From NCBI GenBank assembly GCA_021300155.1, contig JAJTID010000041.1, forward strand, positions 12,608 to 76,607: a stretch of 64,000 nt of DNA. The letters are read 5' to 3'. Below are positions 7,593 through 14,363 of the stretch, in pieces. Below the pieces are notes generated by a model that was given only the letters and a program-made list of their open reading frames with translations, ran no database searches and was not told the DNA's origin. Position 1 is the first letter of the stretch, and every line of letters begins with the position of its first letter. The position numbers and the translations under genes are program-made. Source of the stretch: Pirellula sp. GTDB taxonomy: Bacteria > Planctomycetota > Planctomycetia > Pirellulales > Pirellulaceae.

Positions 7593-10500
7593 TCAATGCT
7601 CAGGATCACCGATGGACATTGTTCCAGCCCAGAATTTTGGCAAGCTACCTGAGACTCGTTCCGCTGGCATTTGAAATCCTTGCAACGATGGTTCAGTACT
7701 GACATCGAATTCCTCAATCCATAAGTTCGCCACCGCTCGCTGCCAAGCGCGGGAGAACGTCGTCCCCTCCAAGCCATCCTGTAGTGATTGCAGTAGCGTG
7801 CAAGTGCTTTCACCGCCAACATGCCAACGCGTTACGACGATATGCCGAGTTCCTTGGCCAATCATGGATAAGCTCAATCGAAGCCACTCGTCCCCCGTTG
7901 TTGTCGATGGATCGAAAGTGCATTGAGCACCAAAAAACCATTGTTCTCTCGGCATCCCCCAAGGCAGTTGATTCCAGCCTGCCATCGTCGCGAAGCCAGG
8001 AGTCCGATCAATCCCTGTCACAAACGCATTAGGATCACTCCATGGATTCATCATCAACGAAACAACGCGGTCGGAAGCCAGTTTTGTATACCGGGCCGGC
8101 GGCAGGGACTGAGACGAAGTTACATCTACCGTTTGCGCTTTTGGAACAAGCGCAACGGTACGTTCCATCAACGAAGTCGCAGATGATTTCGCCTTGCCCC
8201 AGAACTCTGCGCTCTGCAGAACTAATGGACTAGAGGCCGCACTTGCACCGGGTTGAATAAGCTGCGGAATGCAACCAAGTGTCGGTGAGTAGCAGATCGC
8301 ATGATTGGAGATGGCAGCGACATAACCGCGTGCCGAATCCATCGGAAATAACTCCAATGGCATTTGCCAAAGGCTCTCATCTGGCACAATGATCCATCGT
8401 TCTTGGCGTTTCAAGACGTTCCAGACCTCATCTGGCAACAAAACCGATCGGAGTTCGACAATCAATTTTTTCAAATTGGGTTGGTCCACAGTTCCACCCG
8501 TTCCGATCGCAGCCAGCATCGCATTGAGTCCATTAAGCCAGCCGGATTTTTCGGCCACTTGCCATGATTGCATCCCTTGCGGAGTAACGATAAAACCGAC
8601 AACCGTTTTGTCTAAGACACCGAACATCACAACGGCATCGTTTGGTTGCATCGATTTGCGAAGTGCAGGAAGATCGAGTCTCGTCGGGAACGATGCTGGG
8701 ATAGCCAGGGGACCCGCGGAGGCAGCCCAGAGCAATGACTCTTGGGTGGTGCTCAATCGAATCAACGCATCCCACCGTTTACTTTCTTCTTCATTCCATC
8801 GGCGTGTATCCCACTGGGGAGATCTCTCAAACGGGTCGATCCACTCTCGCATCAAGCTTGCGTTTTGACTCAGCTTCGGAAGATTACGGCGTAAAGACTC
8901 TATCTCTTTTGCTTCGCGAGGCGACAGATTTGTTATGTCAGTGTGGATCGCACGGCGCAACTCAAACAATCGACCACCGAGAAGACTCGAACGTCGAAAA
9001 CGATATCCCGCCCATGCGTCCCATGCCAAAAGTTGCTCTTCAAAATCCGTCGATAACTGAACTGTTCGAAGATACGATTTCCAAACCTCTGATTTATCCG
9101 TAGTTTGGAATACGAGTTGTTCTAAGACATGAGTTCGCCATAGTCCTGGTCGATCTCGTTGCAACAAATCTCCCAGCACACGCCTGCCAATCTCAGGAGT
9201 GAGTTGCTTTCCCTCGACCAAACTATGGGCCAAGTTGAGTTGGTAGAGCAGCCTCGATCCTGTGTTTAGGGGCGTGGTGCCACGGAGATCGACTAACGAT
9301 TCTTCCAGTTTCTGAAGTCCCTGCGAATCATTCCCTTCCAAGAATGCAATGCGCGACTGAGAGTATGCGACTGAAGCCATCATTTTTGGCAACGATATTT
9401 GTTTAGGCAAAAGCATCGCTGTTGCGTTGCTCGCTTGTTTGCGTACGACTTCTGCATCACCGCGCAATGCCGCTTGGCGAACCACTTCTACTTGTGAGCG
9501 AATGGTGACTAAACGACTTCTTGCATTGGCCCACTTTGCGGTTTGTTGAAGCGTCTTACCTACCGCTGCGCCCTCCTTTTGATTTTGAAACGAGCACATC
9601 GACCATAGTTCTAAAGCCTCGTCAACATGATCTGCTTGTTCGGCCTTGGCTGCACTGAGGCTCGCTTCCAGCGCGAACTCCTCTGCACTAAGCATCTCGT
9701 TCGAATCGATAGCCATATCAGCCAAAGACAACAGAGCGATCGATGTCAATGCATGGTCGTGGCCACTACTGAGGGTCAAGTTCTTCTTTAGTGCCATCGC
9801 AGTCGTTGAGCGATTGGCAGTAGGGCTGCGCGCTAATGTGGAGCAAATCGAGAGGCCAACCCTCACCGGTTCATGCATTTGCGGCGCGTTGGGGACAACG
9901 AAGACTTGGGCAAGCAACGGGGTGACCGGATTATGTTCAACGAGTCCACCCATCAACTGGAGGCGTCGTCGAAGTGCAATCGCTTGGCAACGCAGTATTT
10001 CGGTAGCATCGATTGGAACTAGTTTTCCTTCGACTCCTCTCCCTGATTGTCGCTCTAACAACAAGTCGGTAGATCCCAATGCGATCGACCAGGGATCGGA
10101 ATAGGAAAGGAACGTCGCGTTTCGACTATTCGAAGCCCCCCAAGTTACGTCCTTTCCCTTCGATTCGACACGGTCGTTTGGTACTGGGTTGCTCATTAGC
10201 GAAATCCAACCCGAGCATTGAATCGAGATTGCTAGTGCGGATTCAAACTTATCCAAGGCGGCACCGATGTCCCCTTGCGTGAGCAAGCATTCACCCATCA
10301 TGACTAAGGGCGGAATACTATCGATTCCACGTTCTCCGTTCACTTGTCGAGATTGAGCGAGAGCTTGTTGAAATCCTTCGAATGCCTGCGAGGTCTGGGC
10401 ATCTTCGTAAAAATCAATCGAAGCGTAATACTCAGGGCGAATAAGATTGCTTGCAATGGTGCCCTTGCGAGGTGCCTTTGCGGTTTGAGCGAAACATGGT

Positions 10501-10613
10501 TCACAGAACAGGGTAATTAGGACACAGAATGCAATGGAAAGGAGGGGGAATCGAAGCGAGACCATAGGAAAGCAAACCAGCTCGGCAGATGAGAGAAAAC
10601 GAAATGCTGCCAT
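7593..10613 (-). CDS. Exported TPR-like / CHAT (caspase HetF associated with TPRs) domain protein
   Basis: N-terminal signal-like stretch and helical repeats. C-terminal CHAT hallmarks 'IIVPDESLWQMPLELF' and 'GQGTRHIVVTRWHVGGEST'. True start may be 10565. Confidence 0.7.
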   Translation of the reverse strand: MAAFRFLSSAELVCFPMVSLRFPLLSIAFCVLITLFCEPCFAQTAKAPRKGTIASNLIRPEYYASIDFYEDAQTSQAFEGFQQALAQSRQVNGERGIDSIPPLVMMGECLLTQGDIGAALDKFESALAISIQCSGWISLMSNPVPNDRVESKGKDVTWGASNSRNATFLSYSDPWSIALGSTDLLLERQSGRGVEGKLVPIDATEILRCQAIALRRRLQLMGGLVEHNPVTPLLAQVFVVPNAPQMHEPVRVGLSICSTLARSPTANRSTTAMALKKNLTLSSGHDHALTSIALLSLADMAIDSNEMLSAEEFALEASLSAAKAEQADHVDEALELWSMCSFQNQKEGAAVGKTLQQTAKWANARSRLVTIRSQVEVVRQAALRGDAEVVRKQASNATAMLLPKQISLPKMMASVAYSQSRIAFLEGNDSQGLQKLEESLVDLRGTTPLNTGSRLLYQLNLAHSLVEGKQLTPEIGRRVLGDLLQRDRPGLWRTHVLEQLVFQTTDKSEVWKSYLRTVQLSTDFEEQLLAWDAWAGYRFRRSSLLGGRLFELRRAIHTDITNLSPREAKEIESLRRNLPKLSQNASLMREWIDPFERSPQWDTRRWNEEESKRWDALIRLSTTQESLLWAASAGPLAIPASFPTRLDLPALRKSMQPNDAVVMFGVLDKTVVGFIVTPQGMQSWQVAEKSGWLNGLNAMLAAIGTGGTVDQPNLKKLIVELRSVLLPDEVWNVLKRQERWIIVPDESLWQMPLELFPMDSARGYVAAISNHAICYSPTLGCIPQLIQPGASAASSPLVLQSAEFWGKAKSSATSLMERTVALVPKAQTVDVTSSQSLPPARYTKLASDRVVSLMMNPWSDPNAFVTGIDRTPGFATMAGWNQLPWGMPREQWFFGAQCTFDPSTTTGDEWLRLSLSMIGQGTRHIVVTRWHVGGESTCTLLQSLQDGLEGTTFSRAWQRAVANLWIEEFDVSTEPSLQGFQMPAERVSGSLPKFWAGTMSIGDPEH

Positions 10614-11323: not shown

Positions 11324-13072
11324 CTAAGCCTCAATAGCGACGGATTCAGTGATGGGATGAGATTGACATGCAAGGATGAATCCGTCGTCCTCTTCTGCCT
11401 TTGAGAGTGCATCGCGGCTATCCATTCGTACTCGTCCAGTCGAGCAGCGGACTTTGCATTGTCCACAGATCCCTGCACGGCACTCCCAAGGCAACGCCAC
11501 ACCTGCCTGTTCTGCCGCTTCAAGAATAGTGGAGGAGGCTTCAATATCCACAGATTGACTTGATAACTCAAAGCTGACGATCGCAGATTGTACCTCTCCA
11601 GCATCACTTTCGGATTGGCCTTCGGAAAGACCTGCCGTAGTCTGTTCGAGGGCGTATGCGTTTCCTCTTGGCGAAACGAACTCTTCTGTTGAAATCTGTT
11701 CGTTGGGTACGCCCATAGAAATGATAGTCTTGAGAACAGCCTGCATCATTTGGTCTGGCCCGCAAAGAAAGATTGGGAGTTCTAGTAATTCAGGTACGAA
11801 AACACGTAAGTCGTCTGCGTTGATGTAGCCTGACTTCTCCAGCCATCTGTTTGATGGAATAGCAACATCATCTGACGGCTTGGACAGGCTGTAATAGGTG
11901 AGGACTTTCAAGTTATCAAACCGATTCGCCAAGTGAGAGAGTTCTGCATCGTAGATTAAATCGAATTTGGATCGAACCGCATTGATGAAGTAGATCTTTC
12001 CTCGCCATGAGCGATCTGTGAGATAGCGAAGGATCGACATCAATGGCGTGATTCCTACTCCACCTGCGATCAACACTACGCCTTGGGCTTGGTGGTCGTC
12101 AAAGAAGAATTTTCCTCCTGGTGCGCCGATGCGAATCTTGTCACCTACCTTCAATTCATCGTGCATGTAGCGGGAAACTAGGCCTTCGGGATTGCGTTTG
12201 ATAGTCAATTCCACATGACCACGTTGAGAAGGCGATGAAGCGATCGTATACAACCGTTTTACTGGATTTCCATGAACGTTGAGTGACACGGTCATGTACT
12301 GTCCAGGCCGATGGATGAATGGAACATCACCTTCTGGCAGGACAAACCGAAAGGTTTTCACATCATGGGTTTCCCGATGGATGTTTTGAACGGTTAGATA
12401 CCCATTCCAGGATTTTCGGTTCATCTCGGATTTGGCAGTTTGACGCGAATTCGACCTCGATGCCTCGCGTCGTAAGTCCAAATAGTGTTTTACGCTCCGA
12501 AATCCTAGAATCGGGGCGAGCACTGCGGCAAATGCAAGGGGCTGTCGTGCATCGCTTTTCACGAGCATGCAGTAGTGAACCACTCCCAAAATGGCTGCCA
12601 CGTACGCGAATCGATGAAGAAGCTTCCAACGGACTGGACCTAATCTGCGAATCATCGCATTCGTACTGGTAACTGCCAGCGGCAACATCGATGCGAGAGC
12701 GACAAATCCCACCAAGAGAAATCGACGCGATACGATCTCTTCGATCGCACTGCTAATATTCCCCATTCGATCAAATACGACATAGATCACGAAGTGAAGT
12801 GCGGCGTAGGCGAATCCGTATAGCCCAAGCGCTCGCCGGTAGGCGATGATACTGCTCCATCCAGTTAACGCTCGCAAGGGAGTAATGGCCAGCGTTATAA
12901 ATAAGAAGACAAGGGAAAGGATTCCTGTGATATGGAGAGCACTGTTGATACCATTTGCCCCCAGTTGATCGTGCCACGCATCCCACCAAAGCATTAGCAA
13001 TGGGCCAAGTCCAGCCAAGATGACAAGATTACGAAGGTAGTTGATGTTGTTCATCGAGCAGAGCATTTCCAT
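11324..13072 (-). CDS. msrQ: MsrQ-type heme-b membrane subunit fused to FAD/NAD(P)-binding FNR domain and C-terminal 2Fe-2S ferredoxin
   Basis: MsrQ motifs 'RRALGL..FAYAALHF', 'WKLLHRFAY', 'VVHY'. FNR motifs 'RLYTIASSP', 'IAGGVGITPLMS', 'CGP..MM', 'EEF'. Ferredoxin 'CRAGICGQC...LACQ'. TAATG overlap with msrP. Confidence 0.88.
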   Translation of the reverse strand: MEMLCSMNNINYLRNLVILAGLGPLLMLWWDAWHDQLGANGINSALHITGILSLVFLFITLAITPLRALTGWSSIIAYRRALGLYGFAYAALHFVIYVVFDRMGNISSAIEEIVSRRFLLVGFVALASMLPLAVTSTNAMIRRLGPVRWKLLHRFAYVAAILGVVHYCMLVKSDARQPLAFAAVLAPILGFRSVKHYLDLRREASRSNSRQTAKSEMNRKSWNGYLTVQNIHRETHDVKTFRFVLPEGDVPFIHRPGQYMTVSLNVHGNPVKRLYTIASSPSQRGHVELTIKRNPEGLVSRYMHDELKVGDKIRIGAPGGKFFFDDHQAQGVVLIAGGVGITPLMSILRYLTDRSWRGKIYFINAVRSKFDLIYDAELSHLANRFDNLKVLTYYSLSKPSDDVAIPSNRWLEKSGYINADDLRVFVPELLELPIFLCGPDQMMQAVLKTIISMGVPNEQISTEEFVSPRGNAYALEQTTAGLSEGQSESDAGEVQSAIVSFELSSQSVDIEASSTILEAAEQAGVALPWECRAGICGQCKVRCSTGRVRMDSRDALSKAEEDDGFILACQSHPITESVAIEA

Positions 13073-14064
13073 TAATAGTTGACAGAGAGATCAAGTCCCG
13101 CGTAGAGAGACGCGACCTGGGCTTCATACCCGTTGAACATGAGAGTCTTCCTTCTGCCGTTTTCACCTATCCTTTGCTCTGTCGCTTGACTCCAGCGGGG
13201 GTGTGAGACGTTCGGGTTGACGTTCGCCAGAAAACCATACTCCAATGGCGCGAATCGTTTCCAACTCGTCGGTGGTTCATCGGAGACGAGTGTTATCTTT
13301 ACAATCGATTTTATCCCCTTGAAACCATACTTCCAAGGCGTAACCAACCGAACCGGTGCTCCATCCTGAGCAGGCATTTCTTTTCCGTAAAGCCCAACGG
13401 CAAGTAGCGTAAGAGGATGCATGGCTTCGTCAAGTCGAAGACCTTCCACATATGGCCATTGCAAAACTGAAGTCTTCTGGCCGGGCATTCGCTCTGGGGC
13501 GAAGAGTGTTTCAAATGCGACATACTTAGCCTCAGCCGTGGGCTCGACGGCATCGAGTAGATGGGAAAGTTGCAGACCTGCCCATGGTATTACCATCGAC
13601 CAAGCTTCGACGCAGCGCATTCGATAGATTCGCTCTTCAATGGGGCCTACCGATTTTAGCTGAGGAATCGTGAAGGTCCTGGGCTTATGAACCAACCCCT
13701 CCACCCGAATCTGCCAGCCGGTAGTGTCAAAGTTCTTCGCTGCCTCGGCAACTGCATTCTTATCCGTGCTAAACTCGTAGAAGTTGTTGTAGCTGATGAT
13801 GTTTGACTCGTTAGTCATCGCCTCATCTATCAAAAAGCCTCGTTCAAGACGCTGCTCCTTTGTCAGTTCTACCGATGCTAGGTCATCGATGGTGGCAGTA
13901 TCGAGCTCTGTGTTGCGAACTGGATTGAACCAACGGTACACGGCGGCCGACGCGGCCAGCGTTCCGACGGCTCCGACACCTTTCAGGAAGCGTCGACGAT
14001 TTGCGTAAAGTGGATAAGGAGTAATTTCATTTTGAAGTTCTCTACCCGAAATATGCTCATTCAC
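13072..14064 (-). CDS. msrP: Protein-methionine-sulfoxide reductase molybdopterin catalytic subunit
   Basis: Tat motif 'NRRRFLK', 'SYNNFYEF', Mo-ligand Cys in '[14 protein letters not shown]', '[12 protein letters not shown]', 'HPRWSQATE'. Confidence 0.95.
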
Positions 14065-14164
14065 TCGCTAAGTCTCCACTTTGAAACGTCATCTTCTCGT
14101 TAGTGTCCCGTTTAATTTAAACTCAGCTCTCTTCCAAAAGGTAGACGAAAACAGGCTATTGGTT

Positions 14165-14363
14165 GAAAAGACGCTCGATAGCGAGGTCGCTATCTTCAGG
14201 ACAGGAAGCATGGGCTTCTTGCTTCAACATCACTACCATAAAGATTGGGATGGATACTTCATGATGCAATTGATGGTAGATGACCTAGATGCATGGTGGT
14301 CGCAGAGCGCCGGGATGGAGTGATTCATGACAAACAACGCAATTTGAAGCCATAGGCCTTCGT
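14165..14363 (+). pseudogene. Remnant of a VOC/glyoxalase-family gene
   Basis: 'EKTLDSEVAIF...FLLQHHYHKDWDGYFMMQLMVDDLDAWW' matches my recollection of a VOC subfamily core. An early TGA lies at 14321. Downstream ccataggccttcgt (14350-14363) looks like a decayed 'PWGLR' (one substitution and one deletion). No credible N-terminus. Confidence 0.5.

Follow-up and report, generated by a model that had tools for sequence, protein, structure and literature searches.

The 64,000-nt stretch of Pirellula sp. DNA analysed here (hereafter, the window) carries on its minus strand, at positions 11324–14064, gene msrP and, immediately downstream, a gene that joins an MsrQ membrane domain to FAD-binding, NAD(P)H-binding and [2Fe-2S] ferredoxin domains (Table 1). 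Judging from the sequences, the locus is likely to be a two-gene operon for the repair of methionine sulfoxide in the periplasm, in which the membrane subunit would bring its own electron input. A preliminary description had reported, downstream of msrP, a 582-aa gene with MsrQ, FAD, NAD(P) and 2Fe-2S domains, and all of these were recovered in place, above Pfam or equivalog cut-offs: the open reading frame (ORF) matches Ferric_reduct (residues 49–164), FAD_binding_6, NAD_binding_1 and Fer2, in every case exceeding the Pfam cut-off. The TAATG overlap described between both genes is real for the longest ORF, but the homologues of the fusion begin at the residue aligned with Met7, so that this is probably the true start, giving a 17-nt spacer instead of a 1-nt overlap. 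The two genes are tightly linked whichever start is used.

Table 1. Features of the msrP–fusion gene locus (positions in the window, except for the last row).
Feature	Positions	Strand	Details
msrP	13072–14064	-	330 aa, GTG start; periplasmic molybdopterin methionine-sulfoxide reductase, catalytic subunit (predicted); NF003767, PF00174
Predicted export signal of MsrP (twin-arginine translocation, TAT)	13918–14001	-	residues 22–49, NRRRFLKG...; TIGR01409
msrQ-FNR-Fer2 fusion gene	11324–13072	-	longest ORF 582 aa; 576 aa from Met7 (ATG 13054)
MsrQ (YedZ) haem b/FMN membrane domain (predicted), six helices plus cytoplasmic helix h7	12443–13072	-	residues 1–210; NF003831
FAD-binding beta-barrel, FNR-like module (predicted)	12104–12394	-	residues 227–323; R273-L-Y-T motif; PF00970, 70.7 bits
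NAD(P)H-binding Rossmann-like domain (predicted)	11735–12073	-	residues 334–446; GGVGITP and CGP motifs; PF00175, 55.9 bits
Variable disordered linker, NAD domain to Fe-S domain	11603–11677	-	residues 466–490; pLDDT <50
Plant-type [2Fe-2S] ferredoxin domain (predicted)	11354–11557	-	residues 506–573; C531, C536, C539, C569; PF00111, 60.7 bits
Conserved 19-nt box CGTCTACCTTTTGGAAGAG	14129–14147	-	candidate operator or promoter -10 element, 83 nt before the msrP start
Same box in relatives	L002 2908–2927, L003 1349–1368, L005 2904–2923, L008 2902–2921

The product of msrP appears to be orthologous to Escherichia coli MsrP (YedY). Against NF003767, the NCBIfam equivalog for MsrP (cut-off 207), it reached 444.7 bits; PF00174 is matched at residues 111–268, and its TAT signal scored 20.6 bits on TIGR01409 (TAT_signal_seq, cut-off 16.7). 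Comparison with E. coli YedY (1XDQ) gave 323 bits, with an identical block of 10 residues around the Cys that we take, from YedY, to be the Mo ligand. In its own genome (6.46 Mb, 99.99 % complete) this is the only MsrP, the single Ferric_reduct domain is that of this operon, and no other MsrQ was found.

Residues 6–207 of the fusion protein scored 159.4 bits on the MsrQ equivalog NF003831 (cut-off 130), and along its entire length the domain shares 37 % identity with E. coli MsrQ. The haem ligands of E. coli MsrQ are His91 and His164, and its FMN pocket comprises Arg77, Arg78, Leu131, Ser135, Trp147 and His151 (Carpentier 2025, PMC12525009). All eight residues are identical in the window, where R79, R80, H93, L132, S136, W149, H153 and H166 correspond to E. 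coli R77, R78, H91, L131, S135, W147, H151 and H164, respectively; the eight are invariant in an alignment of 17 homologues and, in an alignment of 87 homologues from at least four phyla, seven are invariant and His153 is kept in at least 90 %. The long forms of bacterial ferric reductase domain (FRD) proteins have all four canonical histidines (Zhang 2013, PMC3591440); in the fusion, the first canonical His of NADPH oxidases (NOX) and FRD long forms is replaced by Arg79, leaving three. By these residues, the membrane domain is a true MsrQ of the YedZ/STEAP type, with one predicted outer haem and an FMN pocket, and not a bis-haem NOX. A canonical MsrQ is a single domain of ca. 210 aa, a trait that the 582-aa fusion lacks; because dehydrogenase domains (FAD, NAD and Fer2) are attached, we consider it a variant of MsrQ and not a canonical member.

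The motifs listed in the preliminary description (haem His, FAD, NAD(P) and C-x4-C-x2-C..C) are present and invariant in the 87 homologues, namely His93 and His166 for the haem, R273-x-Y-T for FAD, G337-G-x-G-x-T-P and C437-G-P for NAD(P), and the four Cys of the cluster motif C531-x4-C536-x2-C539-x29-C569. The order flavin-NAD-Fer2 and the signatures RxY[ST], GGxGxxP, CGP and Cx4Cx2Cx29C, characteristic of reductases of the phthalate dioxygenase reductase (PDR), PaaE and Hcr type, were all found. With residues 220–582, the best models were GbcB, PaaE and Hcr, each under its equivalog cut-off, and a sequence search of the PDB matched benzoate and phthalate dioxygenase reductases. The closest relatives of this module in E. 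coli K-12 were PaaE (112 bits) and Hcr (93.5 bits), followed by a match at the position of hmp (73 bits) and two lower-scoring ones, with Fre only fifth (38 bits); annotation confirmed the names of PaaE, Hcr and Fre. The fusion scored 77–80 bits on the Fre equivalog NF005963 (cut-off 230), and no Fre orthologue was found in its own genome, where the best match to this model was the FNR domain of the fusion itself (79.9 bits). The module is thus a class-I FNR (ferredoxin-NADP reductase)-[2Fe-2S] reductase of the PaaE/Hcr/PDR class and not an orthologue of Fre.

Database names of the members of this family vary and include 'FAD-binding oxidoreductase', 'glycine betaine catabolism B' and 'ferredoxin-NADP reductase/DMSO/TMAO reductase YedYZ heme-binding membrane subunit'. 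The second of these, a JGI name given to many members, is an over-annotation, since the fusion scored 242 bits on the GbcB equivalog NF058606, with a cut-off of 500. The nearest relatives of the reductase module outside MsrQ proteins (40–44 % identity) are proteins of 550–690 aa (P0265, P0266, P0269, P0272, P0276, P0284, and L097 4001–5662) that begin with what resembles a signal peptide and continue with an HHP(G/D) motif, a segment rich in Met and one transmembrane helix, followed by FAD, NAD and Fer2 domains; their 210–330 N-terminal residues had no Pfam match, and one of them is encoded next to a gene faintly similar to multihaem cytochromes and a gene with an HMA domain.

An AlphaFold2 model of the fusion, built with the 87-sequence alignment, had a mean predicted local distance difference test score (pLDDT) of 86.9 and a predicted TM-score (pTM) of 0.56, the latter making the packing of the domains unreliable. 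It contains three confident bodies, separated by two flexible tethers of variable sequence: the Fer2 domain, the FNR module, and the MsrQ domain of six helices plus the cytoplasmic h7, for which helices were modelled at residues 9–33, 41–70, 73–101, 106–134, 138–170 and 176–210. Residues 1–8, 210–217 and 466–490 are disordered in the model, and the last of these segments varies in length and sequence across the homologue alignments; the two disordered linkers suggest that the domains are mobile. The best fold match of the model in Foldseek was phthalate dioxygenase reductase (2PIA), and the reductase domains of CYP116B self-sufficient P450s were among the next top matches.

Word-indexed protein searches retrieved 1,484 proteins at E ≤ 1e-10, and the best 120 of them, a few truncated entries aside, have the same architecture over 96–100 % of their length, down to 47 % identity. 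An exhaustive search of representatives clustered at 50 % identity identified about twenty full-length fused clusters, and the Fe-S domain is present in every full-length member. We also surveyed nucleotide sequences from one genome per species (185,579 species), in which 293 stretches encode a relative; among the best 80 of these, which were examined, 48 are from Planctomycetota, 19–20 from Myxococcota, five from Acidobacteriota, three from Verrucomicrobiota, and two from metagenome-assembled genomes (MAGs) labelled as Pseudomonadota. In 79 of the 80 loci the gene just upstream, in the same orientation, is an msrP homologue (57–90 % identical); the remaining locus offers only 140 nt in that position. 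The fusion is thus, as far as sequence comparisons can tell, not a one-off but a widespread, conserved family that extends over several phyla and is tied to msrP. Within its own lineage the operon is accessory and patchy: MsrQ exceeded the cut-off in only three of 301 genomes sampled from the phylum (two fused, one unfused) and in eight of 37 genomes of the same genus, where the open frames were of 575–646 aa, with one additional frame of 321 aa. Some genomes contain several msrP-msrQ-fusion operons, such as Neorhodopirellula pilleata (L010 and L026), one MAG (L002 and L005) and G302 (three matches); these co-resident operons are only ca. 50 % identical to each other, which suggests paralogous systems or repeated acquisition.

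When 44 fused and 101 unfused MsrQ domains were placed in a maximum-likelihood tree, at least eight changes between the fused and unfused states were needed, and well-supported branches forced four of these. Within a fused grade lies a large unfused clade, which itself contains two fused sequences, one from Acidobacteriota and one from Verrucomicrobiota; some of the 'unfused' leaves are artefacts, and the interleaving survives this. Since fused and unfused MsrQ interleave, the fusion state appears to be labile within a single orthologous family. Unfused relatives at ca. 50 % identity form plain msrP-msrQ pairs with no reductase gene nearby, and presumably fused and free MsrQ do the same job, with the free forms needing a donor in trans.

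Four entries (P0123, P0125, P0127 and P0138) were considered as genuine operons of msrP, msrQ and a separate FNR-Fer2 gene and were rejected, because they fit frameshifted or decayed fused genes; three of them come from one assembly. Apparent split copies of the fused gene occur in L082, L083, L084 (GCA_036704275.1) and L086. The frameshift can be seen directly at the junction in L084, where the frame of the FAD domain runs on upstream of the called start, whereas L082 and L083 look frameshifted by their gene lengths and the gap between ORFs. In L086 the gene seems to have decayed: behind an MsrQ ORF there are fragments of 47 and 91 aa that match the NAD and Fer2 domains. Some short 'MsrQ' database entries are therefore broken fusions.

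At none of the 80 loci is the operon accompanied, within 4 kb, by any of the genes that flank it in the window (NamZ, an SHD1-like protein, a lipoprotein and a TPR-CHAT protein). The last of them, just downstream (7593–10613, minus strand), codes for a 1,006-aa protein with N-terminal TPR and C-terminal caspase-like CHAT domains and is unrelated to the fusion. We did not find ApbE or FMN_bind in the 16 flanking ORFs scanned, which lie within ca. 11 kb on the downstream side of the operon and 13 kb on its upstream side, nor a regulator next to the operon among the flanking ORFs. In some relatives, an extracytoplasmic function (ECF) sigma factor and a small ORF precede msrP (L083 1538–2382, L084 2063–2930), and in others Met-rich proteins are encoded beside the operon (L011 83–352, L013 170–457, L002 7623–8516, L008 1867–2757), for instance a GMMK-repeat lipoprotein whose gene immediately precedes msrP. 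There is no Met-rich ORF in the 64-kb window, where no ORF exceeds 6 Met per 40 residues. The window holds a minimal, two-gene version of the operon.

Upstream of msrP there is a conserved box, CGTCTACCTTTTGGAAGAG, which has one match with 1 mismatch in the window, for 0.01 expected, and which the closest relatives, despite otherwise unrelated flanks, have at -83 to -86 from the start of msrP. The box takes the form CGTCTACC-TTTT-GG(T/A)AGAG and contains a 6-bp palindrome. In the relatives, the sequence GGTAAG is situated 17 nt upstream of the box, in a spacing that resembles that of an ECF-type promoter, and an inverted copy of the box (CGCTTACC) lies ca. 70–80 nt further up; the window lacks GGTAAG and has the box alone. 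An 80-aa ORF on the plus strand (14081–14323) encloses the box, has no family match, and is probably spurious. No Rfam family, the Moco riboswitch included, matched the msrP leader at E values of up to 1, and a scan for sigma-70 promoters and terminators gave nothing above the shuffled expectation. Tight transcriptional control is expected for the fusion, because an exposed low-potential haem with a permanent reductase risks the formation of superoxide.

By analogy with characterised systems, electrons probably pass from NAD(P)H to FAD, the [2Fe-2S] cluster, the FMN of MsrQ, haem b and the Mo centre of MsrP, and from there to methionine sulfoxide. With its molybdopterin cofactor in place, MsrP would leave the cytoplasm by the TAT pathway and dock on the periplasmic face of the MsrQ domain. 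On the opposite side, the C-terminal module would oxidise NAD(P)H in the cytoplasm at a bound flavin (FAD, by family), which would hand single electrons to the [2Fe-2S] cluster of the module; the Fe-S domain, on a disordered tether of ca. 25–45 residues, may then deliver them to FMN in the cytoplasm-facing pocket of MsrQ. The FMN would pass them to the single, periplasm-proximal haem b and this to the Mo centre of MsrP, which would reduce methionine sulfoxide in proteins. The order of the first three steps is proposed because, to our knowledge, the cluster is the exit to the acceptor in every characterised FNR-[2Fe-2S] reductase (PDR, PaaE, Hcr, BenC and MMOR), and that of the last three follows the E. 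coli system. For this chain we infer the direction and order of transfer, the binding of FMN, the mobility of the Fe-S domain and its part as a relay, independence from quinol and any preference for NADH or NADPH. In E. coli, the potentials are ca. -250 mV for the MsrQ haem, ca. -340 mV for FMN and ca. -250 mV for the Mo centre of MsrP, and those of quinones are +110 to -70 mV (PMC12525009); since quinones are too positive compared with these values, quinol is an implausible donor, and input from pyridine nucleotides would be natural. Also in E. coli, Fre has been proposed to borrow the FMN of MsrQ as a diffusible co-substrate, taking it into its own active site and returning it reduced (PMC12525009). 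In the fusion, in contrast, a bound flavin and a tethered one-electron carrier, the Fe-S relay, would hard-wire this path and make the connection between reductase and MsrQ permanent.

Several points weigh against this path. If the potential of FMN is ca. -340 mV, as in E. coli, a PDR-like cluster near -170 to -200 mV must transfer electrons uphill. E. coli MsrQ also binds quinone (ubiquinone or menaquinone), with an unsettled role (PMC12525009). No patch specific to the fused proteins was found on the cytoplasmic face of MsrQ, and the 13 group-specific columns are scattered and mostly conservative, so they would reflect phylogeny and not an interface; besides, the inter-domain geometry is undefined in the model. 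Electrons might also take a direct route like that of NOX or STEAP, in which the FAD of the FNR module reduces the flavin or haem of MsrQ without a cluster relay, and the [2Fe-2S] domain is a side branch that gates turnover by sensing O2 or redox state, or that acts as a port to or from another partner. The domain order of the fusion, transmembrane FRD and then FAD and NAD domains, is indeed that of NOX, and because of this common order Foldseek aligned 475–554 columns of the transmembrane-plus-FNR part with SpNOX and DUOX1; the Fe-S domain, behind its long disordered linker, has an undefined position. However, no full-length member lacks the Fe-S domain or departs from its four invariant Cys, electrons leave through the cluster in every FNR-Fer2 reductase known to be characterised, and the linker at 210–217 is also disordered, so that the FAD domain does not appear rigidly docked as in NOX. 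We thus regard the direct route as unlikely. A clearly smaller probability corresponds to quinol remaining the physiological donor, with the reductase module acting as a safety valve or running in reverse, for instance to keep the flavin or quinone of MsrQ poised. Such a role would be in line with the binding of both quinones and with E. coli genetics, which, as cited in PMC12525009, tied MsrPQ to the respiratory chain (Gennaris 2015); nevertheless, the measured potentials make transfer from quinol to haem very unfavourable, and if the module that oxidises NAD(P)H were not the input, its permanent fusion in more than 1,400 sequences would be difficult to account for.

Even less probable is a role of the fusion on its own, as an NADPH oxidase or ferric reductase acting on O2 or metal ions outside the membrane, with msrP as a mere neighbour. 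The Ferric_reduct family includes such enzymes, and an exposed low-potential haem would react with O2 (PMC11031084; PMC12525009), but msrP adjoins the fusion in the 79 informative loci, all of them, across phyla, fused and unfused MsrQ interleave in the tree, and the membrane domain scores as an MsrQ equivalog, with the YedZ-type Arg and three His and not the four His of NOX and FRE long forms (PMC3591440). The possibility that an assembly artefact or a lost stop codon joined msrQ to a separate reductase gene is negligible. A few database entries look split, with no other support found for this possibility; those examined derive from the fused gene by frameshift or decay, the frame has no stop codon in its own genome, and full-length, uninterrupted homologues, with 42–81 % identity, occur in at least 80 independent genomes, in agreement with the natural fusion proposed in the preliminary description. 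The self-contained chain from NAD(P)H to the periplasm that was also proposed there fits the conservation across phyla, the pairing with msrP, the presence of a sole MsrQ and no Fre in the genome, and the conserved cofactor residues.

The proposed chain shares with E. coli MsrPQ (YedYZ) an orthologous MsrP, an orthologous MsrQ domain with identical haem and FMN residues, the order msrP-msrQ and a proposed cytoplasmic source of NAD(P)H. It differs from E. coli MsrPQ, for which Fre is the proposed trans-acting donor (Juillan-Binard 2017; Caux 2021; Carpentier 2025, PMC12525009), in the covalent attachment of the reductase, in its PaaE/Hcr/PDR class and in the additional [2Fe-2S] centre. The E. 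coli statements of the preliminary description, that MsrQ is only the membrane domain, that it draws electrons from the respiratory chain and that Fre has been proposed as its NOX-like partner, agree with the literature (PMC12525009; PMC5676040). Its view of the fusion as a Rosetta-stone case holds for a cytoplasmic NAD(P)H flavoreductase as the class of donor, but does not reach Fre itself, because the reductase is of the PaaE/Hcr/PDR class. The flavin, NAD and C-terminal plant-type Fer2 domains follow the same order as in PDR-type reductases (2PIA, PaaE, Hcr, and CYP116B 6LAA and 6KBH), and CYP116B P450s obey the same logic of a reductase fused to its own acceptor. In the fusion, however, this acceptor would be an N-terminal transmembrane flavocytochrome, and not a soluble oxygenase, a hybrid-cluster protein or a P450, and the linker to the Fe-S domain, unlike that of PDR-type reductases, is long and disordered.

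With NOX (SpNOX 8QT6, CsNOX, NOX2, DUOX), whose SpNOX-type bacterial members have been described (Hajjar 2017, PMC5676040), and with the FRD long forms, the fusion shares an N-terminal FRD core, cytoplasmic FAD and NAD(P)H domains, and the predicted outward transfer. Those proteins have four His and two haems, whereas the fusion has Arg for the first His, an FMN pocket, probably one haem, an extra Fe-S domain, and MsrP instead of O2 as the likely acceptor; delivery had been described as 'NOX-like', which is apt for the domain order but only loosely so for a YedZ/STEAP core with one haem, an FMN pocket and an extra flavin. A Fer2 extension is in line with the general statement that bacterial FRD proteins can carry them (Zhang 2013, PMC3591440). 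As in the 'MsrQ-like' flavinylation systems (Meheust 2021, PMC8238504), which contain PF01794 membrane proteins, often with a C-terminal PF00175 domain, electrons from NAD(P)H would be exported; those systems are predicted to have two haems, are mainly from Actinobacteria and occur with ApbE and FMN_bind (PMC8238504), whereas the fusion appears to be a true MsrQ, with MsrP as a partner and neither of these neighbours. The STEAP2-4 metalloreductases also have a single-haem FRD, a flavin replacing the inner haem and a fused cytoplasmic domain that oxidises NADPH, but this dehydrogenase is N-terminal and F420-oxidoreductase-like, there is no Fe-S cluster, and the acceptor is Fe(III) or Cu(II). 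The fusion can thus be described, on these comparisons, as a long form built on a YedZ-type core, an uncharacterised variant of the known MsrPQ system. No description of an msrP-linked MsrQ-FNR-Fer2 fusion was found in the open-access literature, although von Rozycki 2004, to judge from its title, may include related fusions of YedZ.

MsrPQ is a widespread system that defends the envelope against oxidants of the hypochlorite type, and its physiological donor is disputed between the respiratory quinone pool (2015) and NAD(P)H via Fre (2017–2025). The conserved fusion of a true MsrQ to an NAD(P)H-oxidising flavo-iron-sulfur reductase provides independent support, from comparative genomics, for a cytoplasmic source of pyridine nucleotides, and agrees with the redox data from 2025 that argue against quinol (PMC12525009). 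It would also offer a self-sufficient, single-polypeptide model for biochemistry and cryo-EM, with no transient MsrQ-Fre complex to reconstitute, and indicates that a YedZ/STEAP-type core, with one haem and flavin, can underlie a long form, of which the 2013 survey of the ferric reductase superfamily has no record (PMC3591440). More tentatively, and with somewhat less than even confidence, the family might constitute a third natural NAD(P)H-driven transmembrane exporter, beside NOX (from FAD to two haems) and STEAP (from NADPH to FAD to haem), with a hard-wired FAD, a swinging [2Fe-2S] cluster, FMN, haem b and Mo, in which the Fe-S domain replaces the flavin exchange of Fre. If this were true, MsrQ in general would be fed by NAD(P)H and never by quinol, because fused and unfused MsrQ are interleaved close relatives, and the controversy about its donor would be settled.

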